A stretch of 58,720 nt of DNA from Lachnospiraceae bacterium (GCA_017455005.1 JAFTBX010000034.1:1-58720), one strand, 5' to 3'; numbered from the stretch's first letter, positions 4,083-55,230 are shown. A program made the numbers and translations. Notes: generated from the letters alone by a model not told the origin.

Positions 4083-4352
4083 ATGATCATACGCAGAGAA
4101 TATCATTTTACAGGAATCGTACAGGGCGTGGGTTTCCGCTGGAGAGCACGTCACGCCGCTGCCGGCATGGGCATCACCGGATGGGTGCACAACGAATGGG
4201 ACGGATCCGTCACGATGCAGGCGCAGGGAAGCGAGTTTCAGCTGGACCGGCTTTTGGAAGCAGTGAACGGCGGCGACTATATTGTCATCGATTCGGTCGA
4301 GGCGAAGGAACTTCCGCTCGAGGAAGATGAGTATGGATTTCATGTACGCTGA
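4083..4352 (+). CDS. acyP: Acylphosphatase
   Basis: VQGVGFRWRARHAAAGMGITGWVHNEWDGSV is the acylphosphatase signature. The internal Met at 4083 gives the family-typical ~90 aa length. Confidence 0.8.
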   Translation: MIIRREYHFTGIVQGVGFRWRARHAAAGMGITGWVHNEWDGSVTMQAQGSEFQLDRLLEAVNGGDYIVIDSVEAKELPLEEDEYGFHVR

Positions 4353-4411
4353 ATGCGTGCTTTGCCGCATAAAACTAAGAGGCAATTGAGTTTAGACACG
4401 GTTGATATAAG

Positions 4412-6387: not shown

Positions 6388-7467
6388 ATGGATAATCAGT
6401 ATAACCCCAACGAAGCACCTGCAAAGCACATGTTCAGCATGCAGCTGGATCCGCAGATGTTCGAAAAAGCAACAGACGAAGAAAAGCAGCAGCAGGAGGT
6501 CATGAGCGAGTCCACGACCTTCTTCCGCGACGGTATGCGACGTTTAAGGAAGAACAAGCTCTCCATGTTCGGCATCATTGTCCTGTTCGCGATCCTGATC
6601 GGCATCACGGCCGCTCCGCACATTGTGCCTTACGGCTATGAGGAGATCCTTTCTGTTGAAGGAAGACGTGACAAGGGCGCCAAGAACTTAAAGCCCTTCG
6701 AATACAGCAAGATGGAACAGCAGTACATCGCCAAGGGCGGCGAGCGCTTCCCGCATATTTTCGGCACGGACGAGCAGTGCCGTGATTACTTTATCCGAGT
6801 TATCTACGGCACCCGCGTCAGCCTGACGGTCGGCTTCTTCGCAAGTATCATCGTCCTGATCATCGGCATGCTGTACGGCAGTATTTCGGGGTATATCGGC
6901 GGAAGGGTCGATATGATCATGATGCGTATCGTGGACGTCATATACTCGCTGCCCGATATGCTGATGGTCATCCTGCTGTCGGTTGTCCTTCCTTCGCTGA
7001 TCTCGTTCCCGCCGGATTCGTTCTTCGGCAAGATGGGACCGAATATGGTGTCGCTCTTCATCGTTTTCGGCCTTCTGTACTGGGTCGGTATGGCCCGCCT
7101 GATCCGCGGCCAGATCCTTTCCATTAAGGAAAATGACTACATCCTCGCAGCACAGTCCACCGGCGCATCCGCAGGCAGGATCATCCGCAGGCATATCATT
7201 CCGAACTGTCTGTCGGTCATCATTGTCTCGACCGCGCTGCAGATCCCGTCCGCGATCTTTACGGAGAGCTACCTTTCCTTCATCGGACTGGGCGTGCAGG
7301 CGCCGATGCCTTCTTTAGGTTCCCTTGCCAATGCTGCCCGCGGCGGTATCAACACGTATCCCTTTAAGCTGGTATATCCGTCGATCATGATCTGTCTCAT
7401 CGTGCTGAGCCTCAACCTGCTCGGCGACGGCCTCAGAGACGCCTTTGATCCGAAACTGAGACGATAA
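6388..7467 (+). CDS. oppC: Oligopeptide/dipeptide ABC transporter permease (OppC/DppC type)
   Basis: BPD-transporter core (YILAAQSTGASAGRIIRRHIIPN). Start taken at the Met at 6388 (MDNQYNP), preceded by AAGAGAG. Confidence 0.88.
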   Translation: MDNQYNPNEAPAKHMFSMQLDPQMFEKATDEEKQQQEVMSESTTFFRDGMRRLRKNKLSMFGIIVLFAILIGITAAPHIVPYGYEEILSVEGRRDKGAKNLKPFEYSKMEQQYIAKGGERFPHIFGTDEQCRDYFIRVIYGTRVSLTVGFFASIIVLIIGMLYGSISGYIGGRVDMIMMRIVDVIYSLPDMLMVILLSVVLPSLISFPPDSFFGKMGPNMVSLFIVFGLLYWVGMARLIRGQILSIKENDYILAAQSTGASAGRIIRRHIIPNCLSVIIVSTALQIPSAIFTESYLSFIGLGVQAPMPSLGSLANAARGGINTYPFKLVYPSIMICLIVLSLNLLGDGLRDAFDPKLRR

Positions 7468-7480
7468 GAGGTGGCAGAGT

Positions 7481-8512
7481 ATGAAAGAGTATGAACATTT
7501 GCTGAGTGTGCAGGATCTGCACACGACATTTACAACAGATAACGGTGAGGTCCATGCGGTCAATGGCGTATCATTTGATCTGGACGAGCATAAAGTCCTC
7601 GGTATCGTCGGTGAGTCAGGCTCCGGCAAGTCGGTCACGGCTTACTCCGTCATGCAGATCCTGGCGGAAAACGGCCGGATCTCCGGCGGCAGGATCCTCT
7701 ATAAAGGTGAGGATATTTCAAAGTGGAATGAAAAGAAGATGTCCGGATTCCGCGGCAAGAACTGTTCCATCATCTTCCAGGATCCGATGACTTCACTGAA
7801 CCCGGTCTTCACCGTCGGCAATCAGCTGATGGAAGCAATCACGCTCCATACGGATAAGCGCGGCGCCGCTGCAAAAGCGCGTGCGGTCGAGATGCTGGAA
7901 CTTGTTGGCATCAACGAGCCGGAGAAACGTTTAAAGCAGTATCCGTTCGAGCTTTCCGGCGGTATGCGCCAGAGAGTCATGATCGCCATGGCACTGGCCT
8001 GCGAGCCGGACATCCTGATCGCGGACGAGCCGACGACGGCACTTGACGTGACGATCCAGGCACAGATCCTCGAGCTGATGCTTGATATCCAGAAGAAACT
8101 CGGCATGGCCATCATCATGGTCACCCATGACCTGGGCGTCATTGCCGAGATGTGCGACGAGATCATCGTCATGTACGGTGGACGTGTCTGCGAACGCGGC
8201 ACAGCGGACGAGATCTTCTACAATCCGAAACACGAATATACCAAGGGCCTGCTGCATTCGATCCCGAGTGTGAGCGGCTCTAAAGAAAAGCTCCAGCCGA
8301 TCGAAGGCACACCGATCAATATGCTGAATATGCCGAAGGGCTGCGCGTTCTGCCCGCGGTGCAAGGAAGCAATGAAGGTATGTCTGGAGATGGTACCGGA
8401 GGAGCGTATCATCAACAATGACCATACAGCAGCCTGCTGGATCAATGTCCGTGACGGGATCGCGGGCGACCCTGTCGTAAAGAAAGAAGAGGAGGTGACA
8501 TCAAATGGCTGA
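7481..8512 (+). CDS. oppD: Oligopeptide ABC transporter ATP-binding protein (OppD type)
   Basis: Walker A GESGSGKS, signature LSGGMRQR, Walker [13 protein letters not shown], and a C-terminal oligopeptide-ABC Cys motif region. Confidence 0.92.
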
Positions 8513-9464
8513 ACATCTGCTGGAAGTTGAACACCTCAAACAGTATTTCCCGGTCAGGGACGGATGGTTTTCCACCAAGCCGCTGAAGGCGGTCGATGAT
8601 GTCTCCTTCAGTATTGATCCGGGCGAGACTCTCGGCCTTGTCGGAGAGTCGGGCTGTGGCAAGACGACGGTCGGACGCAGCATTCTCAGACTTTATGAGC
8701 CGACGGACGGCGTCGTCCGTTTTGACGGCGAAGAAGTGACCGCGCGCAATATCCACGCGCTCCGCAGGAAGATGCAGATGGTCTTCCAGGATCCGTATTC
8801 CTCACTCAACCCGCGTATGACGGTCGAGGACATCATCGGCGAGCCGCTGGATGTGCATCATATGTACAGCGGACGCGCGGAACGCAGAGAGCGTATTCTG
8901 GAGCTGATGAGCATTGTAGGATTAAACGCGGAGCATGCAACGCGCTACGCGCATGAGTTCTCCGGCGGTCAGCGTCAGCGTATCGGCATTGCGAGAGCGC
9001 TGGCGGTCAATCCGAAGTTCATCGTCTGTGATGAGCCGGTATCCGCTCTGGACGTTTCGATCCAGGCACAGGTCATCAACATGTTCGAGGAGCTGCAGGA
9101 AAAACTGGGCGTGGCGTATCTTTTCATCGCCCATGACCTGCTTGTTGTACGCCATATTTCCAAGAACATCGCGGTCATGTATCTCGGCCATATGGTCGAG
9201 ACTGCCGAGGCAAACGAGCTGATGGATCATCCGATCCACCCGTATACGGAGTCCCTGCTTTCCGCGGTTCCGATCCCGGATCCGAAGATCGCGCGGCAGA
9301 AGAAGAGGATCATGCTTGAGGGCAATGTACCGAGCCCGTTAAACATGCCGACCGGATGTCCGTTCCGTACGCGCTGCAACTATTCGACGGATAAATGTGC
9401 CGAAGCATGTCCGGAGCTTACGGACCGCGGCAATGGCCACAAGGTTGCATGCTGGAACCGCTGA
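8505..9464 (+). CDS. oppF: Oligopeptide ABC transporter ATP-binding protein (OppF type)
   Basis: Walker [30 protein letters not shown]. Overlaps oppD by 8 nt; GGAGGTG SD. Confidence 0.92.
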
Positions 9465-9671
9465 TTCCCGAGCCATGCAAAGCCCTGTGGATGATCCTGC
9501 CGGGATCAAAAGGGGATTGCAGGATATAAGATCACTACGCTTTATTGCATGCGGCAGATTCAGACAGAGAGACCCTCTGTGTTCCTGACGCCGCAGATAT
9601 AATAAAGAAATCCAATCTTCGGGCCAACCTATGACCCGGACAAGTATTATCAAAGGAGGAAAAGAAACACT

Positions 9672-11501
9672 ATGAAAAAGCAACTTGCACTTGTTCTTGC
9701 TGCAGTCATGGTAAGTGCTTCTCTCGCAGCCTGCGGATCAAGCGGCGGCGCGGCAGAGACCACGGCAGCTCCGGCAGCTACCGAGGCAGCTGCAGAGACC
9801 GAAGCAGCTGAGACTGAAGCAGCAGAGACAGAGGCTCCGGCTGAAGCAGAAGCATCTGATGAGGCTCCTGACGCAGCAGCTCTTGTCAGCGACGCATTCA
9901 TCGATCCGGTCAACGACTGGGCAAAGTATGACGAGCTGATTGCAGAGATCAAGGCAGAGACCGACATGGCACATCGTACCGAGCTGATGCATCAGGCTGA
10001 GGACATCCTGATGAGCAACTACGCTGTTGTCCCGATCTACTACTACAACGATCTCTACATGGAGAAGGACTATGTCAAGGGCGTATATGCAAACTCATTC
10101 GCTACCAAGTTCTTCATGTATGCTACTCTTGAGAACGGTTCCGACACCCTTCGCCTGAACCTGGCTTCTGAGCCGGATTACCTTGATCCCGCTCTGAACT
10201 CTTCCGTAGACGGTGCCTGCCTTGCGGCAAATTCCTTCTCGGGTCTTTATACCTACAACGCTGAAGGCAAGCCGGTTCCGGCATGCGCTGAGAGCTATGA
10301 GGTTTCCGAGGATGGTCTGACCTACACCGTTAAGCTGAAGGAAGGCCTCAAGTGGTCCGATGGTTCCGATCTTACCGCAAGCGACTTCGTTTACAGCTGG
10401 AAGAGAGCTACTGATCCGAAGACCGCTGCAGACTACGAGTACATGTTCTCCGGTTTCGACGGATATGCTGATGGCAACATCAATGTTACCGCTGTCGACG
10501 ACACCACCCTTGAGTTTGTTCTGTCTGCTCCGTGCGCATACATGGAAGACCTGATGGCATTCCCGACCTTCTATCCGGTCAAGCAGGAGGCTGTTGAGTC
10601 CTATGCTGACTGGGAGACCACTCCGGGCGGATGGTGCCAGGAAGCAGGTTTCGTATCCAACGGCGCTTACGTCTGCACCGGCTGGAACCATGACACTTCC
10701 ATGACCTATGAGAAGAACCCGTACTTCTGGGATGCTGACAACGTCAAGATTGAGAAGCTTGAGTTCATGCTTTCCGCAGATGACACCGCGATCTTCTCCG
10801 CTTACAACGCAGGCGATGTTGATTTCATCGACACCGTACCGACAGACGAAGTCCAGGGCCTGATCAACTCCCAGAATCCGGAGTTCAAGGTCATCGACGA
10901 GCTTGGTACCTACTACATCGCATTCAACGTCAACTCCAAACTGTTCGAGGGCAAGACTCCGGAGCAGGCAGCATGCATGCGTGAGGCTATCAACCTTCTC
11001 ATCGACAGAGACTACATCGTAGAGAACATCGGCCAGACCGGACAGGTCATCGCTACTTCCTACATCCCGCTTGGTATGATGGACGGCAACGGCGGCACCT
11101 TCAAGAGCGATCCGGCAGTCGGCTACTATGATGCATATGCTATCAATGATGACTATGAGGGCACCATCGCAAAGGCTACCGAGCTTATGAAGGCAGCTGG
11201 CTTCAAGTTCGGCGAGGACGGCATGCTTTCCGAAGAGACTCCGCTGCAGATCGAGTATCTGACCAATGACGGTACCGGTCACGTAGCAATCGCTGAGTCC
11301 CTGCAGCAGGATCTGGGTGCGATCGGCATCAACCTTACCATCCAGAAGCAGGAGTGGAACGTCTTCCTTGAGGAGCGTAAGAACGGCAACTTCGATATGG
11401 CACGTGAGGGCTGGATCGCTGACTTCAACGACCCGATCAACATGCTTGAGATGTTCACCACCACTTCCGGCAACAACGACCCGCAGTACGGCCGCAAGTA
11501 A
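9672..11501 (+). CDS. oppA: Family-5 (OppA/DppA type) peptide-binding lipoprotein
   Basis: Signal peptide + lipobox LAAC, a long A/E/T linker, then the SBP_bac_5 core. AAGGAGG SD. Confidence 0.85.
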   Translation: MKKQLALVLAAVMVSASLAACGSSGGAAETTAAPAATEAAAETEAAETEAAETEAPAEAEASDEAPDAAALVSDAFIDPVNDWAKYDELIAEIKAETDMAHRTELMHQAEDILMSNYAVVPIYYYNDLYMEKDYVKGVYANSFATKFFMYATLENGSDTLRLNLASEPDYLDPALNSSVDGACLAANSFSGLYTYNAEGKPVPACAESYEVSEDGLTYTVKLKEGLKWSDGSDLTASDFVYSWKRATDPKTAADYEYMFSGFDGYADGNINVTAVDDTTLEFVLSAPCAYMEDLMAFPTFYPVKQEAVESYADWETTPGGWCQEAGFVSNGAYVCTGWNHDTSMTYEKNPYFWDADNVKIEKLEFMLSADDTAIFSAYNAGDVDFIDTVPTDEVQGLINSQNPEFKVIDELGTYYIAFNVNSKLFEGKTPEQAACMREAINLLIDRDYIVENIGQTGQVIATSYIPLGMMDGNGGTFKSDPAVGYYDAYAINDDYEGTIAKATELMKAAGFKFGEDGMLSEETPLQIEYLTNDGTGHVAIAESLQQDLGAIGINLTIQKQEWNVFLEERKNGNFDMAREGWIADFNDPINMLEMFTTTSGNNDPQYGRK

Positions 11502-11541
11502 TCCGGACGCTATAAGCGAACTGAATTCATGAACTATAAGA

Positions 11542-11579
11542 ACACCCGGTTGTGTGTATGCACAGTCGGGTGTTTTTTG
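11542..11579 (+). terminator. Rho-independent terminator of the opp operon
   Basis: ACACCCG...CGGGTGT stem with an inner TGTG/CACA pairing, followed by TTTTTT. Confidence 0.75.
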
Positions 11580-11699
11580 TGAAGAGTGTCTTTTGAAATG
11601 CTGTGGGGCGGTATGCCCGGCACGGCTCGTGCCAGAGCATCAGGAGCTATGATGAGTTGTGCACTATGCAAAAGAAAGATGCAAAATAATGATAATGTG

Positions 11700-11729
11700 T
11701 TAACAGTTTTGCTCAAAATGTGTTATACT
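11700..11729 (+). promoter_or_regulatory. Candidate promoter of yegP
   Basis: TTAACA (11700-11705), 18-nt spacer, extended -10 TGtTATACT (11721-11729). Confidence 0.45.
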
Positions 11730-11796
11730 GTGAAATGAAGTATGGATATTGTTTAAACAAATCTCATATAAGATCGATCAGTAAAGGAGGAAACCC

Positions 11797-12168
11797 ATGG
11801 GCAAATTTGTAGTAACACAGGCAAAAACAGGCATTAAGTTCAGCTTGAAGGCATCCAACGGACAGGTCATTGCGTCTTCACAGGTCTATAAGTCCTTAAA
11901 GAGCTGCCTCGCAGGCATCCAGAGCGTGATCGTGAACAGCGCTGTCGCTCCGATCGAAGATCAGACGGTCGAAGGCTTTGCGGCTGAAAAGTGCCCGAAG
12001 TTTGAGGTCTATACGGATAAGGCCGGCGAGACACGTTTCCGCCTGAAGGCTAAAAACGGCCAGATCATCGCGACCGGAGAGGGCTACAAGACGATGAAGT
12101 CCTGCTTAAACGGCATTGCAAGTATCCGCAAGAATGCTGCGGAGAGCGAGGTTGTTCAGGATCTCTGA
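11797..12168 (+). CDS. yegP: YegP family (UPF0339/DUF1508) protein, two tandem repeats
   Basis: Two copies of the DUF1508 repeat: FSLKASNGQVIASSQVYKSLKSCLAGIQSV and FRLKAKNGQIIATGEGYKTMKSCLNGIASI. AAGGAGG SD. Confidence 0.85.
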   Translation: MGKFVVTQAKTGIKFSLKASNGQVIASSQVYKSLKSCLAGIQSVIVNSAVAPIEDQTVEGFAAEKCPKFEVYTDKAGETRFRLKAKNGQIIATGEGYKTMKSCLNGIASIRKNAAESEVVQDL

Positions 12169-12857
12169 TCCTGCGGCACCATTTCCGCGACCTCGAGTAC
12201 ATTGCCGCGCACATAAAAACGCACATCATAGTTGCAGTAGTAGAACCCGTAACGGCGTTTGCCGTCATTGTCCGCATCATAACGCGGACGGGGGTCCTCG
12301 CGTAAAACTTCATACAAAGCTTCCTGCTGCTCTAAGCTCAGGGAGCTTTTTTTGATGAGTTCCATGGGATCGGTGACCGTGAGTTCCTGGAAGGGCATCT
12401 CGTCTACGAAGCCGTTCCTTGCGTCGGGGTGGGAGTCATAGATGCTGATATAGGGCTTGATGTCATAGATCGGCGTGCCGTCCATCATGTCAATGCCGGA
12501 AACGTGTAAGACCGGACCCTGATCCTCCGTCATTTCAACCGAATCTAAGCGCACGGAGCTTAAGCCGATGCTGTTCGGGCGGAAGGGGGAGCGGGTGGCC
12601 CAGACGCCGACATGGGTCTTTCCGCCAAGCCTCGGCGGCTTGGAAGTAGCGGACCAGTCCGCGCGGTGCGCAAGCGAAAAGTCCCAAAGGATCCAGAGAT
12701 AGCTGAATCCGTCGAGCCCCTTCACGCCCTCGGGGTTGCGGTAATAGGGTTCAAAGACGATGCGGCCTTTTAACCCGTCCACGAGCCCGCTCTGGCGCGG
12801 CAGGCCGAACTTGGTCGGAAAATCCGTATAAATATGTGCTACCGGTCTGATCTCCAT
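12156..12857 (-). CDS. trmO: tRNA (t6A37-N6)-methyltransferase TrmO (TsaA/YaeB family)
   Basis: N-terminal IRPVAHIYTDFPTKFGLPRQSGL and the GFSYLWILWDFS region are typical of TsaA-like proteins. AGGAGG lies 7 nt upstream on the minus strand. Confidence 0.82.
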   Translation of the reverse strand: MEIRPVAHIYTDFPTKFGLPRQSGLVDGLKGRIVFEPYYRNPEGVKGLDGFSYLWILWDFSLAHRADWSATSKPPRLGGKTHVGVWATRSPFRPNSIGLSSVRLDSVEMTEDQGPVLHVSGIDMMDGTPIYDIKPYISIYDSHPDARNGFVDEMPFQELTVTDPMELIKKSSLSLEQQEALYEVLREDPRPRYDADNDGKRRYGFYYCNYDVRFYVRGNVLEVAEMVPQDQRS

Positions 12858-42185: not shown

Positions 42186-42221
42186 AAGGTCATTACAAAA
42201 ACATAATTCCTTCTATTAACG

Positions 42222-42252
42222 GCGGCGCATACCTCAGGGTATGCGCCGTTTT
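42222..42252 (+). terminator. Rho-independent terminator of the hyp-mbh block
   Basis: CGGCGCATACC-tcag-GGTATGCGCCG followed by TTTTGTTG. Confidence 0.85.
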
Positions 42253-42392
42253 GTTGTGGGCAGCAATGAGGAAACTATGCAGGAATGATGCGCCCCTGAA
42301 TAATATTGAATGACGGAAAAACATAGTTATTCGATATATTAGATAAAACGATAACCGATTATAAGTATTTTAAAAAGAACAATCCAAATGTA

Positions 42393-42421
42393 TTGACATG
42401 TGTTAGATACAGTGATATCAT
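42393..42421 (+). promoter_or_regulatory. Sigma-A promoter of the Met-leader / metQ-like unit
   Basis: TTGACA (42393-42398), 17-nt spacer, extended -10 TGaTATCAT (42413-42421). Confidence 0.6.
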
Positions 42422-42549
42422 TACGCACAACAAGAAGAAATACCCAGTAAACAGATAGGTAATAAACTGTTTCAGGGCGCCGGATGAACCTCGCGCCTCA
42501 GATGTGAGGACGACATCCGCAGACTCTATACGGGAAAGGAGGACCAGCC

Positions 42550-42618
42550 ATGAAGAGACTTCATACGATGACAGCCATGTGTATGTACATGTGCGGCATG
42601 ATGCGCCGTATGTATTAA
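42550..42618 (+). CDS. 22-codon Met/Cys-rich small ORF (candidate regulatory leader peptide) MKRLHTMTAMCMYMCGMMRRMY
   Basis: AAAGGAGG (42535-42542) lies 7 nt before the ATG. 8 of 22 codons are ATG and 2 are Cys. The ORF is followed by two intrinsic terminators before the metQ-like gene. It is not in the ORF track because it is under 60 aa. Confidence 0.55.
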   Translation: MKRLHTMTAMCMYMCGMMRRMY

Positions 42619-42667
42619 AGTCGTTCTTCGCATGAGCTGAGTTTTCAAATACAGTTGAATCATCAGA

Positions 42668-42695
42668 CAGGGCGATCGGACGACGCCCTGTTTTT
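42668..42695 (+). terminator. Intrinsic terminator/attenuator 1 in the metQ-like leader
   Basis: CAGGGCG-atcggacga-CGCCCTG followed by TTTTT. Lies 49 nt after the small-ORF stop. Confidence 0.7.
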
Positions 42696-42803
42696 ATGTG
42701 GGAAGATTTGAAAGCACGCGACGGTCATCAGGACCGGGATATCGTGTGCACGGACTGTGATGGGACAGTACGGCGGAAAGGATCAACCACAGGATGCAAG
42801 CGG

Positions 42804-42844
42804 CATCCGCAGGGCAGCAGCTATGCTTTATGCGGATGTTTTTT
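42804..42844 (+). terminator. Intrinsic terminator/attenuator 2 in the metQ-like leader
   Basis: CATCCGCA-N19-TGCGGATG followed by TTTTTT. The 5' arm can alternatively pair with GGATGC at 42792-42797. Confidence 0.65.
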
Positions 42845-42992
42845 ATTGTAAAAAACCGGGCGCAAGGCCTTACCGGAAACGGCATCCGGATAAAGACGGA
42901 AAGGAACATACAGCCGGGAAGAAGATCCTTCCCGGAGACCATCACAGAAAAACCCGGGATCCACGGGCAGTTCAGACTTAAGGAGGAACATC

Positions 42993-43982
42993 ATGAAAAA
43001 GAATATCATAGCAGCAGCACTTACGGCGATCATTGCGTCATCAGCCATCACCGCATGCGGCGGTTCTACCGCGGCAGCAACCACAGCCGCAGCAACAACA
43101 GCCGCAGCAACGACGGCCGCAGAAACGACGGCAGCTGCCGCAGCAGAGACCACAGAAGAGGAAGCGGCAGATGCAAAACCGGTTGAGGCTGCGGAAGGCG
43201 CAGAAGCGGATACTGCAGAACCGATTCACCTGACCATCGGCGTGACCGGAAGCGTCTATGACGATCTCTGGGCACCGGCGATCGAGACCCTGGAGCAGGA
43301 AGGCATCATCCTTGAGACCGTACAGTTTTCCGACTATGTTACACCCAACAACGCCCTTGCCAACGGTGAGACCGATCTGAACGGCTTCCAGCACCGCATC
43401 TATCTGGCATCGGAGATCGAGCAGTACGGTTACGAGATCACCAACATCGGCAATACCTTCATCTCCCCGATGAACCTTTATTCCGACAAACTCACTTCCC
43501 TGGACGAACTTCAGGACGGAGACGTCATTGCGATCCCGAATGATCCCACAAACGGCGGCAGAGCCATCAAGGTCCTGAGCGACGCAGGTCTGATCACACT
43601 GAAGGCTGACGCCGGATTCAACCCGACAGTGGAGGATGTGGAGACTTATAACGTCGGTATCACCATCGAGGAACTTGCGGCCAACACCATCCCGTCGATC
43701 CTTCCGGATGTGGCTGCGGCGATCATCAACGGCAACTACGCGCTTGACTTCGGCTTAAGGACGGAAGACGCGCTCTTCCATGACAAGATGGAGGAAGAGG
43801 AGTACTGGAACCTGATCGCCTGCAGGACGGAGGACTTAAGCGATCCGGTGCTGGTCGAGGCATATGACAAGGTCGTCAAGGCATACCAGTCCGCAGGAAC
43901 AAAGCAGGTCTACGACGAGCAGTTCGGCGGCTACTATGTAGGCGTAGGCTGGGACCAGGACCTGCTTGCAGATTACAAGTGA
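42993..43982 (+). CDS. metQ: MetQ/NlpA family methionine(-analogue)-binding lipoprotein, no adjacent MetN/MetI
   Basis: Lipobox ITAC. Core similar to MetQ (DYVTPNNALANGETDLNGFQH, SLDELQDGDVIAIPNDPTNGGRA). AAGGAGG SD. Confidence 0.85.
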   Translation: MKKNIIAAALTAIIASSAITACGGSTAAATTAAATTAAATTAAETTAAAAAETTEEEAADAKPVEAAEGAEADTAEPIHLTIGVTGSVYDDLWAPAIETLEQEGIILETVQFSDYVTPNNALANGETDLNGFQHRIYLASEIEQYGYEITNIGNTFISPMNLYSDKLTSLDELQDGDVIAIPNDPTNGGRAIKVLSDAGLITLKADAGFNPTVEDVETYNVGITIEELAANTIPSILPDVAAAIINGNYALDFGLRTEDALFHDKMEEEEYWNLIACRTEDLSDPVLVEAYDKVVKAYQSAGTKQVYDEQFGGYYVGVGWDQDLLADYK

Positions 43983-44109
43983 TATAAGTGATAAGCCCTG
44001 ACAGACGGGTGACCGCGCCGCAGACCCGCCTGCAGGTGCGGCCTTCCATACGGGAGGGCAACAGATATCCCCTATATTTTGATCACTAAGGATTTATATA
44101 TACAGATTT

Positions 44110-45510
44110 ATGGCTACACTACTTCAGGACCTCATCCGGATCATACCGGATCCGGAGAGGATCATCACAGAAAACATTGACAGAAAATACTTAAGCGACC
44201 AGCTCGGCCGTAAGCAGGGACATGCCGACGCACTTATATTCGCGGTTTCCACCGAAGAGGTAAGCGGCGTGCTGCGGTACGCGTGGAAGCATGCTATCGC
44301 TGTGACGCCGCGCGGCGCCGGTACCAATCTGGTCGGGTCCACTGTGCCGCAAAAGGGAGGCATCATCCTGGATTTGAGCCGGATGAACCGTATCCTGGAA
44401 CTGGATGAGGATACCTTTACGGTGACAGTGGAGCCTGGGATACTGCTTCGCGATCTGCAGGCATACGTGGAAGCCCGCGGACTGTTCTATCCGCCGGATC
44501 CCGGTGAGAAGGAAGCGTCCATCGGCGGCAACATCAGTACCAATGCCGGCGGGATGCGGGCCGTAAAGTACGGCGTTACCAGGGATTATGTGCGCGGGCT
44601 GGAGCTTGTCACGGCAGACGGAACGGTCATGACGGTCGGCACCAAGAATGTAAAGGACACGACCGGCCTGCCTTTAAAGCACCTCATCATCGGCGCCGAA
44701 GGAACGCTGGCAGTGATCACAAAGTGCATCCTGCGGCTGATCCCGAAGCCGGAAACGACGGTGAGTGTACTTATCCCGTACCCCGACTTAAAGACCGGCA
44801 TCGGAAGCGTGATCCGTTTTCTGCGCGCCGATGCGGATCCGGTCGCCGTCGAATTTATGGAGCGCAGCGTTGTCAGGCTTGGTGAGGCTTATGCCGGCGT
44901 AAAGTATCCGGACGGCCCGGGCGCGGCAGGGAAAGGAAAACGGGCGGAGTCATATATCCTCCTTTCCTTTGACGGGAGCCGCAGCGAAGTCGAACAGAAA
45001 GTAGAGCGCGTACGGCGCCTTGCTTTTGAAAACGGGTCGCTTGATTACCTGCCTCTCTGGGATCCTAAGCAGGCAGCGGAGATCTGGGCCGTGCGGGGCG
45101 CTCTGGTGAAAGCTGTCGAGGCGGTCTCGGAACAGGAACCCATCGATCTGGTCGTGCCGATCGACAAGTCGGAGGAATTCATCCGCTTTGTCAATGACTT
45201 AAGCGCACGCACGGGCATGCAGATGATCAGCTTCGGACACGCGGGCGACGGCAACGTCCATCTGTGCGTCGTCCGGGGCGACCGGGACGAGGAGACCTGG
45301 GAGAGGGAGCTCGACGCAAACCTGTCAGAGCTCTACAGCCGCACCTATGAGATCGGCGGGCTGATCTCCGGAGAGCACGGGCTGGGCATTTCCAAGCGAA
45401 AGTATTTCTTTAAGGAAGCTGATCCTGCCAATGTCGACTGGATGAACCGGATCAAGGATGCGCTTGATCCGAAGCATATCCTTAATGACAGGATCTCCTA
45501 CATCAGGTAA
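44110..45510 (+). CDS. FAD-linked oxidase (GlcD / D-lactate-D-2-hydroxyacid dehydrogenase family)
   Basis: FAD_binding_4 motifs (VTPRGAGTNLVGS, ISTNAGGMRAVKYG) and a C-terminal FAD-oxidase domain (SGEHGLGISKRKY). Weak SD. Confidence 0.82.
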   Translation: MATLLQDLIRIIPDPERIITENIDRKYLSDQLGRKQGHADALIFAVSTEEVSGVLRYAWKHAIAVTPRGAGTNLVGSTVPQKGGIILDLSRMNRILELDEDTFTVTVEPGILLRDLQAYVEARGLFYPPDPGEKEASIGGNISTNAGGMRAVKYGVTRDYVRGLELVTADGTVMTVGTKNVKDTTGLPLKHLIIGAEGTLAVITKCILRLIPKPETTVSVLIPYPDLKTGIGSVIRFLRADADPVAVEFMERSVVRLGEAYAGVKYPDGPGAAGKGKRAESYILLSFDGSRSEVEQKVERVRRLAFENGSLDYLPLWDPKQAAEIWAVRGALVKAVEAVSEQEPIDLVVPIDKSEEFIRFVNDLSARTGMQMISFGHAGDGNVHLCVVRGDRDEETWERELDANLSELYSRTYEIGGLISGEHGLGISKRKYFFKEADPANVDWMNRIKDALDPKHILNDRISYIR

Positions 45511-45637
45511 GCAAAGCGGGAAAGGCTTCCGCAGCCTTCGTACGGCAGAGCATGATAAAAGCCGCTGCCTGGCCTTCAGCAGAAGGCCGCCGGAGGCAGC
45601 AACAGTAAAAAAATACAGGGTAAGGTTACAACGAAAT

Positions 45638-46798
45638 ATGAGGACACTATCTGACAGAACAGCACATTTTACGGATTCGGTGATCCGACGCATGACCAGG
45701 ATCTCCAACAAATACGGCGCGGTCAACCTTTCACAGGGATTTCCGGACTTTGATCCCCCGCGGGAGATCCTGGACCGCCTGAAGGAAGTGGCGGACGGGC
45801 CGCTCCATCAGTATTCGATCACCTGGGGCGCACAGAACATACGTGAAGCGCTGGCTGCAAAGCAGAAGTATTTTACCGGGCTTGACGTTGACCCCGACAG
45901 CGAGATCGTCGTGACCTGCGGCAGCACCGAGGCGATGATGGCGACCATGATGGCGCTCATCAACCCGGGAGAGAAGGTCGCGATCTTTTCGCCGTTTTAT
46001 GAAAACTACGGCGCGGACACGATCCTTTCCGGCGCGGAACCGGTCTACATACCGCTCGTACCGCCGGAATACGGCTTTGACCCGGAGAGACTGGAGCAGG
46101 CCTTCCGCGATGGCTGTAAGGCGCTGATCCTCTGCAATCCGTCCAATCCGTCCGGCAAGGTATTTACACGGGAAGAACTGCTTACGATCGCGGATCTTGC
46201 CGAACGCTATGACGCCTGGATCGTGACGGACGAAGTCTACGAACACATCGTTTACGCTCCGTACCGCCATATCTGCTTTGCAGCGCTTCCGGGCATGAAG
46301 GAACGGACGATCACCTGCAGCTCTCTCTCCAAGACCTACTCGATCACCGGCTGGCGTCTGGGATATACAATCGCTCCGCCCGAAGTAACGGACCGGATCA
46401 AAAAAACGCATGATTTCCTGACGGTCGGCGCAGCCGCACCCCTGCAGGAAGCGATCGTGACAGGCCTTCATTTCGGGCAGGACTATTACGACGCGCTGCT
46501 TCGGAAATACACGGCGCGCCGGGATCTCTTCCTGAAGGGCCTTGACGATATCGGCCTCATCCATAACGTGCCGCAGGGCGCATACTATGTCATGATGGAC
46601 GTGAGCGAGTTCGGCTATGACGACGACCTGAAATTCTGCGAGGACCTCGCGGCCAGGGTCGGTGTCGGCGCGGTGCCTGGTTCGAGCTTCTTCAATGAAC
46701 CGGAGAACCGCTATATCCGTTTCCATTTTGCAAAGCGCGAGGAGACGCTCAACGAGGCGCTTGCGAGGCTCGCGGATATCCGTAAGAAGATCAGATAA
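45638..46798 (+). CDS. Class-I PLP aminotransferase, YbdL/KAT-like (methionine aminotransferase type)
   Basis: Start at the internal Met at 45638. AVNLSQGFPDFDPP, TDEVYEHI and SLSKTYSITGWRLGY closely mirror E. coli YbdL motifs (INLSQGFPDFDGP, SDEVYEHI, SFGKTYHMTGWKVGY). Confidence 0.85.
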   Translation: MRTLSDRTAHFTDSVIRRMTRISNKYGAVNLSQGFPDFDPPREILDRLKEVADGPLHQYSITWGAQNIREALAAKQKYFTGLDVDPDSEIVVTCGSTEAMMATMMALINPGEKVAIFSPFYENYGADTILSGAEPVYIPLVPPEYGFDPERLEQAFRDGCKALILCNPSNPSGKVFTREELLTIADLAERYDAWIVTDEVYEHIVYAPYRHICFAALPGMKERTITCSSLSKTYSITGWRLGYTIAPPEVTDRIKKTHDFLTVGAAAPLQEAIVTGLHFGQDYYDALLRKYTARRDLFLKGLDDIGLIHNVPQGAYYVMMDVSEFGYDDDLKFCEDLAARVGVGAVPGSSFFNEPENRYIRFHFAKREETLNEALARLADIRKKIR

Positions 46799-46899
46799 AC
46801 ATCAGCCGTATATCGCTGCTATAGGTTAACATAATTATAAACAGTAACGTTATGTAAGCCGTACAGCGGTACCATCCGTCACGAAAGAAGGACAGGCAT

Positions 46900-47916
46900 A
46901 TGAAAAAGGTTAAGATAGGCATCATCGGCATCGGAAATGTAGGATCGCATGTGCTTTATACGCTGGCGCTGCAGGGACTGGCCGATGAGTTTGTTCTCAT
47001 AGACATCAACGAAAAGAAGGCGGCAGCTGACCGGCAGGATACCTTCGACAGCGCCATGTTCCTGCCGCATAAGGTAAAGATCACGGTGGCGCACATCGCG
47101 GAAAATGATGCCGGAGATGGAAAGCAGGATCAGACCACAGCGTCTCAGGATACCGACGGCTTCGCGCTGCTTCGCGACTGCGACATCATTATCAACAGCG
47201 TCGGACAGATCGACTTGCTTCGGGTGGGACATGACCGCTTCACCGAGCTTAAGTTCAACATCCCGGCGGTACGCAGCTATGCAGGGCGCATCGCCGCTTC
47301 AGGCTTTAACGGCATTATCGTCAACATTTCCAATCCCTGTGACGTTATCACCCATGAGCTGATCCGCCTGATCCCGCTCCCGAAGGGCCGTATCTTCGGT
47401 ACCGGCACGGGCCTTGACACGGCGCGTCTTCGCGCGGCGCTCGCGGACAAACTGAACGTAAGCGTAGACTCCATCGTCGCCTATATGTTCGGCGAGCACG
47501 GAAGCCACCAGATCACGCCGTGGTCGATCGCAAGCTTCGACGGCATACCGCTCGACGTGATGGAGAAGCTGGATCCGCGCTTTTCCTTCGACCGTGAAAA
47601 GGCGGAGCACGCGGCGGCGGAGGGAGGCTGGGTGACTTACTACGGCAAGTTCCATACCGAGTTTGCCATCTCACTGACAGCATCCCGGATCGTAAAGGCG
47701 ATCATATACGACGAGAAGGCCGTGCTTCCCGCGAGTTGCCTGCTGGAGGGCCAATATGGAGAGCACGATGTCTGCGCGGGCGTTCCGGCAGTCATCGGCG
47801 CAGGCGGCGTGGAACTCATCCCGGAGCTTCCGATCACCGATGAGGAAAAAACACGTTTCCATGAGTGCTGTGAGGTCATTCGCGCCAACATTGCCCGGGC
47901 AGCGGAACTGAACTGA
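46900..47916 (+). CDS. LDH/MDH-superfamily L-2-hydroxyacid dehydrogenase, divergent
   Basis: Rossmann IGIIGIGNVGS...LIDI, NPCDVIT, GTGTGLDTARLR, GEHGSH (catalytic His). The substrate loop is atypical, with a ~25-aa insertion after strand 3. Confidence 0.75.
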   Translation: MKKVKIGIIGIGNVGSHVLYTLALQGLADEFVLIDINEKKAAADRQDTFDSAMFLPHKVKITVAHIAENDAGDGKQDQTTASQDTDGFALLRDCDIIINSVGQIDLLRVGHDRFTELKFNIPAVRSYAGRIAASGFNGIIVNISNPCDVITHELIRLIPLPKGRIFGTGTGLDTARLRAALADKLNVSVDSIVAYMFGEHGSHQITPWSIASFDGIPLDVMEKLDPRFSFDREKAEHAAAEGGWVTYYGKFHTEFAISLTASRIVKAIIYDEKAVLPASCLLEGQYGEHDVCAGVPAVIGAGGVELIPELPITDEEKTRFHECCEVIRANIARAAELN

Positions 47917-47961
47917 CGAAATCAGCCACAGCCATAAAGACGGCAGTTGAATAGTACATTA

Positions 47962-48006
47962 AACAGGTGTAAGACCACGATTTGCGGGGATTGCACCTGT
48001 TTTTTA
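47962..48006 (+). terminator. Rho-independent terminator after the LDH-like gene
   Basis: AACAGGTG-N24-CACCTGTT followed by TTTTTAT. Confidence 0.7.
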
Positions 48007-48091: not shown

Positions 48092-48119
48092 TTGAAACAG
48101 AATAAAAAGATGCTATAAT
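48092..48119 (+). promoter_or_regulatory. Sigma-A promoter of the MacB-type ABC operon
   Basis: TTGAAA (48092-48097), 16-nt spacer, extended -10 TGcTATAAT (48111-48119). Confidence 0.6.
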
Positions 48120-53825: not shown

Positions 53826-53842
53826 ATGCATCGTAAATTAAT

Positions 53843-53976
53843 ACCTATGAAGAGTGCGTGAGAGACAAGCTCGAAGACCGCACAGCAACCTACCCGGTTG
53901 GGCAAGGTGCTAAAGCTTGACCGATGGGTGAGATAATAGCGACATCAGGCCCTGACGGTAAGTCGGGGCTTTTTTA
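53843..53976 (+). promoter_or_regulatory. SAM-I (S-box) riboswitch with terminator expression platform
   Basis: Conserved cores are present: GAAGAG, GCGTGAGAGA (kink-turn region), CAGCAACC, AAGGTGCTAAA, GAGATAATAG. Followed by a GCCCTGAC-ggtaa-GTCGGGGC hairpin + T6 (53949-53975), immediately upstream of metK. Confidence 0.85.
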
Positions 53977-54048
53977 TGGAAAATGCCTCCGGCTGATTCC
54001 TGACAGTTTATCTCAACCAAATTCACAGCCAGAGGAGGAAAGGAAAAA

Positions 54049-55230
54049 ATGGCAAGAAGATTATTTACATCCGAGTCGGTGACGGAAGGACATCCTGACA
54101 AACTCTGCGACCAGATCTCTGATGCGGTCCTTGACGCAATCATCGCGAAGGACCCGAACGCGCATGTTGCGTGTGAGACATTCTGCACGACCGGTCTTCT
54201 TACCGTTATGGGCGAGATCACGACAAACTGCTATGTGGACATCCAGAAGATCGCCCGTCAGGTTATCTGCGACATCGGCTATGACAGAGCCGAGATGGGC
54301 TTTAACGGAAACACCTGCGGCATCCTGACTGCCATCGACGAGCAGTCCGGCGACATCGCCATGGGCGTCAACAAGTCCTACGAGTACAAGGACGGCGAAG
54401 AGGACGAGGCGAACCTTCGCGGTGCCGGCGACCAGGGCATCATGTTCGGCTATGCCTGCAACGAGACTCCTGAGTATATGCCGCTTGCGACCAGCCTTGC
54501 GCATAAGCTCGCGATGAAGCTTGCGGCTGTACGCAAAGAGGGCAGGTACGAGTATCTTTGCCCGGACGGAAAGAGCCAGGTGACTGTAGAATATGAAGGC
54601 GACAAACCGGTCCGCGTGGATACGGTCGTTCTTTCCACGCAGCATAAGGATACTGTATCACTGGAGCAGCTTCGTGAGGACATGATCCAGGGCGTTATCC
54701 TTGAGGTGATTCCGGATGAGCTGATCGACGACAAGACCCGCTTCTTCATCAATCCGACCGGACGTTTCGTCATCGGCGGACCGCAGGGCGATACCGGCCT
54801 TACCGGACGTAAGATCATCGTTGACACCTACGGCGGCGCGGCACGTCACGGCGGCGGTGCATTCTCCGGAAAAGACCCGACAAAGGTGGACCGTTCCGCA
54901 GCATACGCGCTTCGTCATATTGCTAAAAATGTTGTCGCAGCCGGCCTCGCTGACCGCTGCGAGATCCAGGCAGGCTACGCCATCGGCGTCGCAAAGCCTG
55001 TATCTGTCATGGTCGAAACCTTCGGCACCGGCAAGTACACGAACGAAGAGATCGAAGAGGCGATCAACAAGGTCTTTGACCTTCGCCCGTACTGCATCAT
55101 CCGCGACCTTGATCTCTTAAAGCCGATCTACCGCCGTACTGCGGCTTACGGCCACTTCGGAAGAGAAGAGGAAGGTTTCACCTGGGAGAAGCTTGATAAG
55201 GTCGAAGAGCTGAAGGCAGCGATCGGCTGA
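54049..55230 (+). CDS. metK: S-adenosylmethionine synthase
   Basis: [56 protein letters not shown]. Confidence 0.97.

Follow-up and report, generated by a model that had tools for sequence, protein, structure and literature searches.

Animals convert hydroxy-methionine to methionine by means of one L-specific and one D-specific 2-hydroxyacid enzyme, followed by transamination (PMC6912822). Here, we analyzed a bacterial locus of comparable enzyme content, located on a 58,720-nucleotide (nt) stretch of DNA from Lachnospiraceae bacterium (GCA_017455005.1, JAFTBX010000034.1:1-58720; hereafter the window), which represents the entire 58.7-kb contig of a metagenome-assembled genome (MAG) that is 80% complete. 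Between positions 42993 and 47916, four plus-strand open reading frames (ORFs) encode a MetQ lipoprotein (MetQ2), a flavin adenine dinucleotide (FAD)-dependent dehydrogenase, an aminotransferase, and a lactate dehydrogenase (LDH)-family enzyme, all four families being confirmed by profile searches. A preliminary description of this DNA had proposed a salvage route for the hydroxy and keto analogs of methionine, a proposal supported here by the protein families, their co-occurrence in other genomes, and the leader preceding them, with the substrates predicted. Judged from these sequence features, the operon would convert D- and L-2-hydroxy-4-methylthiobutyrate (HMTBA, the methionine hydroxy analog), via the keto acid, to L-methionine under methionine limitation, a reading to which we assign a probability of roughly 0.6. 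The operon would thereby represent an accessory methionine-scavenging unit in the leader-peptide-controlled regulon of the MetNIQ importer.

The three-step logic of the animal route, comprising an L-2-hydroxyacid oxidase, a mitochondrial D-2-hydroxyacid dehydrogenase, and transamination, is the same as that proposed for the operon, in agreement with the earlier suggestion that a D-specific enzyme, an L-specific enzyme, and a transaminase together reproduce the way animals process HMTBA. The animal D-specific enzyme belongs to the same FAD family as the window enzyme (8jdc), and KAT/glutamine transaminase K matches the aminotransferase. The L-specific step differs, being assigned to an NAD (nicotinamide adenine dinucleotide)-dependent LDH-family protein in the window and performed by a peroxisomal flavin mononucleotide oxidase in animals; an O2-dependent oxidase step would be impossible in the window organism because it is a strict anaerobe. 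Unlike the animal route, the window genes form a regulated bacterial operon tied to an ATP-binding cassette importer.

Among bacterial systems, the electron-confurcating LctBCD complex (Ldh-EtfAB) of Acetobacterium woodii (PDB 7QH2) has the same FAD- and metal-binding motifs as the window FAD enzyme, yet etfB and etfA are absent beside the window gene and its met-linked orthologs, and the two groups fall into separate clades. L-HicDH (1HYH) belongs to the LDH family and matches the window enzyme in a loop segment, the window loop being 2 residues shorter, whereas a lineage-unique 22-aa acidic insertion and the methionine-operon setting distinguish the window enzyme. The group containing YbdL, KAT, glutamine transaminase K, and MtnE, which closes the methionine salvage cycle, consists of class I, fold-type I enzymes with full-length similarity to the window aminotransferase; the latter, however, scores under the methionine aminotransferase cut-offs, has Rv0858c/DapC as its best PDB match, and has orthologs that also occur in aryl-pyruvate contexts. 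Streptococcal metQ-metN-metP operons carry M20 peptidase genes, presumed to release methionine from a derivative. The same pairing of importer and enzyme is seen in the present system, and M20 genes are found in related loci (L109-L111). Unlike in the streptococcal operons, the window passengers are redox enzymes and a transaminase, split from metNI and accompanied by their own MetQ paralog and leader attenuator.

Results

The gene set recurs with methionine importer genes

The preliminary description had pointed to gene-neighborhood co-occurrence as a check on the proposed route. When this analysis was run, the four families were found to recur together, mostly inside metN-metI-metQ operons and in several orders. 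Contigs carrying the module were assigned to the Lachnospiraceae, Oscillospiraceae, and Butyricicoccaceae, with at least five arrangements, usually fused to metN-metI. In the Butyricicoccaceae locus L082, a promoter, a Met/Cys-rich leader, and a terminator are followed by metN, metI, metQ, the FAD gene, and the aminotransferase, separated by gaps of ~20 to 30 nt, and genome G422 likewise encodes metNIQ-FAD-aminotransferase. L109 and L111 carry the longer arrangement metN-metI-metQ-FAD-aminotransferase-M20 amidohydrolase-LDH-like. In the Oscillospiraceae loci L112 and L113, the order is leader-metN-metI-LDH-family-metQ-FAD-aminotransferase; the LDH-family gene of these two loci appears to be an independent recruitment, since it is only 38% identical to the window enzyme. 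The window form is set apart by its split from metNI, its orphan MetQ paralog, its private attenuator, and the D- and L-type enzymes encoded side by side.

Within the genus, an aminotransferase ortholog of at least 55% identity was present in five of 24 species, and the LDH in two of those five. Two same-genus genomes (G011 and G016, 95 to 97% complete) encode a Met-rich leader, terminator, MetQ, aminotransferase, and LDH-like enzyme, and no FAD gene was found anywhere in them. Conversely, the sister contig L107 carries, at the same site (hydrogenase upstream, MacB downstream) and behind the same leader, only MetQ and the FAD enzyme, and it lacks any equivalent of window segment 45513-48090, where the genes for the aminotransferase and the LDH lie. 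An independent assembly (GCA_024712465.1) repeats the four-gene order together with the hydrogenase and MacB flanks, so the four-gene layout did not arise by misassembly. Within the genus, the variable presence of the D- and L-enzymes, along with the M20 and Amidohydro_3 genes attached to related operons, fits a toolbox for methionine derivatives imported by MetNIQ.

This recurrence bears on the simplest alternative, namely that the three enzymes have ordinary housekeeping roles, as lactate dehydrogenases for the D- and L-isomers and an aminotransferase of general or DapC type, and lie by chance beside a metQ paralog. The linkage repeats across three bacterial families in differing gene orders, the genes are accessory in the genus as counted above, every score falls under equivalog cut-offs, and the Etf partner of a true LctD is absent. 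We therefore regard a chance assembly of housekeeping genes as very improbable, even though the best database matches carry the labels lactate dehydrogenase, glycolate oxidase, and N-succinyl-diaminopimelate aminotransferase, and the window gene was the sole LDH-family gene found in the 80%-complete genome.

Organization of the locus and its leader

The elements of the locus, all on the plus strand, are as follows:

42393-42421 (+), sigma-70-like promoter, TTGACA, 17-nt spacer, TATCAT, with TG (consensus scan, 11/12 matches)
42550-42618 (+), leader ORF of 22 codons with 8 Met and 2 Cys and a good Shine-Dalgarno sequence (translation)
42667-42696 (+), predicted attenuator, an intrinsic terminator with GC-rich stem and U run (sequence, fold)
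42804-42845 (+), second terminator-like hairpin, CATCCGCA ... TGCGGATG plus T run, 5' of metQ (read from sequence)
42993-43982 (+), MetQ/NlpA-family substrate-binding lipoprotein, MetQ2 (PF03180)
44110-45510 (+), predicted FAD-dependent D-2-hydroxyacid dehydrogenase, an LctD-clade offshoot without Etf (FAD_binding_4 and FAD-oxidase_C)
45638-46798 (+), class I pyridoxal phosphate (PLP) aminotransferase of YbdL/KAT/glutamine-transaminase type, 386 aa (PF00155)
46900-47916 (+), predicted LDH-family NAD-dependent L-2-hydroxyacid dehydrogenase, L-HicDH-like (Ldh_1_N and Ldh_1_C)
47961-48006 (+), operon terminator with 12-bp stem (47961-48002) and U run (fold z-score -2.6, terminator scan)

The promoter sits 3' of the terminator (42221-42250) that closes an upstream membrane hydrogenase operon, and the strong promoter of the next operon, encoding a MacB-type exporter, is located at 48092-48119. 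The locus had been described as four co-oriented genes running from a Met-rich leader to one downstream terminator with no convincing internal terminator, and both statements hold. The ORFs, the leader, and the 12-bp-stem terminator were all found, and the terminator scan returned no plus-strand site inside 42993-47916. The intergenic gaps measure 127, 127, and 101 nt, and each folds as a hairpin without a U tract. The four genes are likely co-transcribed, although the gaps are large. Between leader and metQ, the leader and its terminator are as previously described, but the additional hairpin at 42804-42845 had been overlooked; it is kept in the sister contig L107, is absent from G011 and G016, and may represent a tandem attenuator.

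Met/Cys-rich leaders were also found 5' of the orthologous operons in G011, G016, L107, L082, L110, and L112, and a hairpin with U run equivalent to that at 42667-42696 follows every leader compared. Thus, a short Met-codon-enriched ORF followed by an intrinsic terminator, the signature of a leader-peptide attenuator, is conserved across orthologous operons. The canonical metN-metI-metQ1 operon on contig C38 of the same genome is likewise preceded by a Met-rich leader ORF of its own, with a terminator built in the same way, and since both operons carry the same leader type and terminator, they would belong to one methionine regulon. By analogy, the four-gene operon would be induced at methionine limitation, because classical attenuators behave in this manner and methionine importers are generally derepressed under that condition. 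No S-box, T-box, or other family was detected in an Rfam search of 42186-43000, at gathering score or at E up to 1.

The sole SAM riboswitch found in the genome (SAM-I) precedes metK, encoding S-adenosylmethionine synthetase (window 53842-55230); the methionine transport genes of this genome use leader peptides, unlike metK. A second small ORF with the common motif MRI..F.KR.NGY..RC was observed in L109 (~4297-4381) and L110 (~4245-4295), just 5' of metN and between it and the leader/terminator region, the two contigs being unrelated.

The FAD enzyme belongs to a clade linked to metQ

Among solved structures, LctD (7qh2_C, 9e-124, aligned over residues 10-461) is by far the nearest to the FAD enzyme, followed by mitochondrial D-LDH (8jdc, 1.5e-61), glycolate oxidase, and D-2-hydroxyglutarate dehydrogenase. 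Its earlier placement as a GlcD-family, D-2-hydroxyacid-type enzyme can thus be made more precise, the nearest relatives being LctD and mitochondrial D-lactate/D-2-hydroxyacid dehydrogenase. The His/His/Glu metal-site motifs GHAGDGNxH (GHAGDGNVH) and GEHG (GEHGLG) are kept and align with those of LctD and LDHD. The enzyme fails the GlcD equivalog TIGR00387 (336 vs. 567.9 bits), and the search for a GlcE/GlcF partner found no other FAD-oxidase_C gene in the 80%-complete genome.

To place this enzyme, an even sample of 399 Clostridia genomes was searched. One match at 65% identity was recovered, while all others were at or below 48%. Seven of the seven fetched relatives at 44 to 48% identity directly adjoin etfB-etfA, i.e., the LctBCD arrangement, whereas all sampled copies of at least 64% identity adjoin metQ and none adjoins etfBA. 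A maximum-likelihood tree splits met-linked from Etf-linked LctD homologs with 100/100 support; the rows were chosen by identity to the query, so this split is partly built in, and context labels were not used for the choice. Together, these data suggest that the met-linked FAD enzymes form a distinct, Etf-independent offshoot of the LctD clade. No dedicated Etf partner was encoded in the window or at the met-linked orthologs. Two sets of Etf genes elsewhere in the genome were considered as partners and rejected, as the pair on contig C66 belongs to an acyl-CoA dehydrogenase cluster and the match on contig C71 is at the contig end with unrelated genes beside it. Unlike that of LctBCD, the substrate of the window enzyme is likely not lactate.

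The LDH-family enzyme resembles L-HicDH in its specificity loop

The LDH-family enzyme scores below the L-LDH equivalog TIGR01771 (261 vs. 303.55 bits). Residues R113, D173, R176, H200, and T253, which we take to be the catalytic Arg109, Asp168, Arg171, His195, and Thr246 of LDH numbering (mapped by motif), are invariant in a six-sequence alignment. The canonical LDH loop G-A-x-Q-x-x-G-E-x-R containing Gln102 is absent and a longer loop, G-Q/K-I-D-L-L-R-x-G-H-D-R, is present; no conserved Gln occurs at the Gln102-equivalent position among the LDH-family orthologs. The specificity loop and following helix (residues 92-160) match 1hyh_A with an E value of 1.9e-9, the sole other PDB match being at 1e-3, and the 1hyh-like segment has the form GxIxL...DRFxELKF...ISNPxDVIT. 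Over the whole protein, L-HicDH (1hyh) matches at 1.1e-44 and ordinary L-LDHs score slightly higher (1e-48). The orthologs from met operons are 62 to 69% identical and have the extended loop in common. These features agree with the preliminary assignment to the LDH superfamily as an L-2-hydroxyacid enzyme of L-HicDH type, in that the catalytic residues are kept and the loop matches only L-HicDH among PDB chains; the enzyme is thus predicted to be L-HicDH-like by its specificity loop.

The 22-aa insertion, rich in Asp, Gln, and Thr, occupies residues ~66-87 (window 47095-47160) and occurs in this lineage only; close LDH-family homologs range from 340 to 371 aa, which suggests that insertion length varies. 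In L126 (5441-9023), three consecutive genes encode a lactate permease, an LDH-family enzyme that is HicDH-like and 51% identical to the window enzyme, and an aminotransferase of class IV (branched-chain/D-amino-acid type). They possibly form a hydroxyacid-to-branched-chain-amino-acid module that follows the same hydroxyacid-to-amino-acid logic.

The aminotransferase falls in the YbdL/KAT group

The longest ORF of the aminotransferase gene begins at 45458 and overlaps the FAD gene. Because of this overlap, and because family matches begin near residue 60, the ATG at 45638 was taken as the true start. The protein scores 215.9 bits against PF00155 and carries the SxSK Schiff-base lysine motif (SLSK), NPxNPxG, and the C-terminal Arg. 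Its best PDB match is Rv0858c/DapC (3e-80), followed by the E. coli methionine aminotransferase YbdL (1u08, 1.3e-70 over residues 14-379), the kynurenine aminotransferases KAT I/III (~1e-60), Thermus GlnAT (6e-58), and archaeal aromatic/aspartate aminotransferases, so the YbdL/KAT-family label given previously is retained. The NCBIfam methionine aminotransferase models NF006569 (322.4 vs. 420 bits) and NF009079 (231.4 vs. 481 bits) were missed. A cystathionine-lyase identity was rejected, since models and structures of PatB/MalY type score far below those of YbdL/KAT type. The enzyme belongs to the family of keto-methionine transaminases that includes YbdL, glutamine transaminase K/KAT, and Thermus GlnAT.

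The Collinsella-wide (Actinomycetota) aminotransferase is 73 to 74% identical to the Lachnospiraceae enzyme, which suggests that the gene has spread horizontally among gut bacteria; its neighbors there encode a Bro-N protein and a ROK kinase. In three same-genus genomes (G022, G018, and G023), IorA-IorB, a PaaK-like aryl-CoA ligase, an ACT protein, and the aminotransferase (55 to 59% identity) are clustered (L026 2294-7568, L024 196-1962, and L025), in what looks like the rumen route in which aryl-acetates are reductively carboxylated to give aromatic amino acids. In an Oscillospiraceae MAG (L031 5934-12691), genes for a LysR regulator, a MetQ-like lipoprotein, and a PaaK-like ligase accompany those for the aminotransferase (74% identity) and for the alpha and beta subunits of a 2-oxoacid:ferredoxin oxidoreductase; that this cluster might carboxylate 3-methylthiopropionate reductively to give the keto acid of methionine is pure speculation.

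MetQ2 has the pocket of a methionine-binding protein

MetQ2 scores 223.8 bits against PF03180 (cut-off 27), covers 233 of the 236 profile positions, and carries a lipobox Cys and a Thr/Ala-rich linker. The phmmer match to E. coli MetQ (4yah) is 8e-46. Scores fall under the NCBIfam MetQ cut-offs (NF008285, 177 vs. 374 bits; TIGR00363, 157 vs. 228.85), these models being proteobacterial-centered. When aligned to 4yah_X, MetQ2 retains all seven Met-contact residues (E. coli Y69, F86, H88, Y91, R144, N202, and N229) known from the E. coli and Neisseria MetQ structures (PMC6739813). The idea that the MetQ-type protein might serve to deliver analogs fared less well than the other assignments, as the pocket is an ordinary methionine pocket and no special delivery role is indicated. 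A MetQ2 pocket specialized for a hydroxy or keto analog is likewise unsupported, given that all seven residues are conserved.

MetQ2 is an orphan, as metN and metI are not adjacent and metN-metI-metQ1 is encoded on contig C38. The C38 MetN and MetI are 58% and 71% identical to those of L082, respectively, and we infer that MetQ2 docks on this C38-encoded MetNI. The metNIQ1 operon occupies 7164-12500 on the minus strand of that contig (genome G000, locus L116). At the position of the key Asn229 of E. coli, MetQ1 has Gly and the L082 MetQ has Cys, while MetQ2 keeps Asn. Seventeen nt 3' of metQ1 lies a gene for a 547-aa Amidohydro_3 amidohydrolase, followed by a flavodoxin gene.

The plain methionine pocket of MetQ2 would also suit flux in the reverse direction, in which the cell transaminates methionine that it has imported and reduces the resulting keto acid to 2-hydroxy-4-methylthiobutyrate, serving as a redox sink or for amino-group harvest, as in lactic acid bacteria. 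HicDH-type enzymes reduce keto acids in lactic acid bacteria, and LDH-family enzymes thermodynamically favor keto-acid reduction. A catabolic operon is, however, not expected under a Met-codon attenuator common to the methionine importer. Furthermore, FAD enzymes of this family act as oxidizing dehydrogenases, and a pair of D- and L-specific enzymes suits the consumption of a racemic substrate, not the production of one. On balance, reverse flux is improbable.

MetNIQ systems import D-methionine and derivatives (PMC6739813), which raises the alternative that the cell takes up D-methionine, or some other methionine modified at N or S, and that the FAD enzyme supplies the aminotransferase by working as a dehydrogenase of the D-amino-acid type. 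The addition of an M20 amidohydrolase in related operons (L109-L111) is in keeping with this, and the Amidohydro_3 gene after metNIQ1 hints at the processing of several methionine derivatives. Against such a role, the FAD enzyme retains the His/His/Glu metal-binding motifs for 2-hydroxyacid binding, and G011 and G016 functionally substitute for it an LDH-family enzyme, which is unable to act on amino acids. We know of no member of the GlcD/LctD/LDHD clade that oxidizes amino acids. D-methionine or a modified methionine as the imported compound is the least probable explanation considered here.

Discussion

The proposed salvage of methionine hydroxy and keto analogs draws on the gene families and their intact catalytic motifs, the linkage to metNIQ in several lineages and orders, the common leader type, and the Etf-less FAD clade. 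In the scheme we envisage, in which the substrates, the flux direction, and the inducing signal are predicted, scarcity of methionine (perhaps also cysteine) would cause read-through of the Met/Cys-codon leader attenuator and switch on the four genes. MetQ2, a putative high-affinity binding lipoprotein of methionine type, docked on the MetNI encoded elsewhere, would capture methionine and probably close analogs. In the cytoplasm, the FAD enzyme would oxidize D-2-hydroxy-4-methylthiobutyrate to 2-oxo-4-methylthiobutyrate, passing electrons to a presumed acceptor, and the HicDH-like NAD enzyme would generate the same keto acid from L-2-hydroxy-4-methylthiobutyrate. The YbdL/KAT-like aminotransferase would then convert the keto acid to L-methionine.

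Several observations weigh against this reading. None of the four proteins attains any NCBIfam equivalog or subfamily cut-off, and the unmodified methionine pocket of MetQ2 gives no indication of analog specificity. No electron acceptor for the FAD enzyme is apparent in this strict anaerobe, the only Etf genes found adjoining an acyl-CoA dehydrogenase. Gaps of 100 to 130 nt leave space for internal promoters. When the leader was subjected to minimum-free-energy folding with the ribosome footprint masked, the terminator was kept in every state and no dominant antiterminator emerged; by eye only, short stretches of the post-Met segment were seen to be complementary to the terminator loop or 3' arm. 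As these folds gave no antiterminator, the direction of the response (on at starvation) rests on analogy and on co-regulation with metNIQ. In addition, the genome encodes a MetH-like protein and six Cys/Met PLP enzymes, and the organism thus seems able to make methionine de novo, making the route accessory and not essential. Methionine auxotrophy of the host was considered and is unsupported for the same reason; MetE was not found in the 80%-complete genome.

The aminotransferase raises a further objection. Approximately 70 Collinsella contigs (L029-L106) carry stand-alone orthologs of 73 to 76% identity without the partner genes, and orthologs of 55 to 59% identity cluster with an indolepyruvate-type oxidoreductase and an aryl-CoA ligase. 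Given these stand-alone and oxidoreductase/ligase contexts, the enzyme may be a broad hydrophobic 2-oxoacid transaminase. By extension, the whole operon could salvage hydrophobic 2-hydroxy and 2-oxo acids in general, such as phenyllactate, indolelactate, 2-hydroxyisocaproate, and the methionine analog, through promiscuous enzymes, with only the regulation and the transporter being methionine-specific. L-HicDH and the mitochondrial D-2-hydroxyacid dehydrogenase are broad-range enzymes. Consistent with such breadth, the same genus has close aminotransferase orthologs encoded alongside IorA/IorB, an ACT protein, and a PaaK-like ligase, and L031 has one beside a 2-oxoacid:ferredoxin oxidoreductase and ligase; the HicDH-like relative in L126 adjoins a lactate permease and an aminotransferase of branched-chain type. 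However, Met and Cys are the only codons in which the leader is enriched, MetNIQ is the transporter partner in every case, and the FAD clade has so far been found only beside metQ. General salvage of hydrophobic acids is therefore unlikely, and conversion of D- and L-HMTBA to L-methionine is the reading we prefer.

None of the parts of the operon falls outside known families, and the chemistry has a precedent in animals; what appears to be new is the bacterial operon arrangement. Searches of the literature for a bacterial metNIQ-linked hydroxyacid/aminotransferase route returned nothing relevant, although coverage was incomplete and this is not proof of absence; the same outcome, with the same incomplete coverage, was obtained for a methionine leader-peptide attenuator. 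Somewhat more tentatively, at a little short of even odds, gut and rumen Clostridia may possess a dedicated and previously undescribed pathway that yields L-methionine from the keto acid and from both isomers (D and L) of 2-hydroxy-4-methylthiobutyrate, built on MetNIQ and governed by a class of Met/Cys-codon attenuator uncatalogued for methionine.

HMTBA and its ester are fed to ruminants and poultry on a very large scale. The operon provides a concrete candidate gene set for HMTBA use in rumen Lachnospiraceae, many Oscillospiraceae, and Butyricicoccaceae. Automatic annotation lumps the met-linked FAD clade with LctD as 'FAD-binding oxidoreductase' or 'glycolate oxidase', from which it can now be separated, and the HicDH-like clade is currently labelled L-lactate dehydrogenase. 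The methionine-codon leader attenuator could mark the methionine regulon in these bacteria. If the proposed route is correct, HMTBA given as a feed additive, and hydroxy-methionine from other fermenters, would have their microbial sink in this operon.

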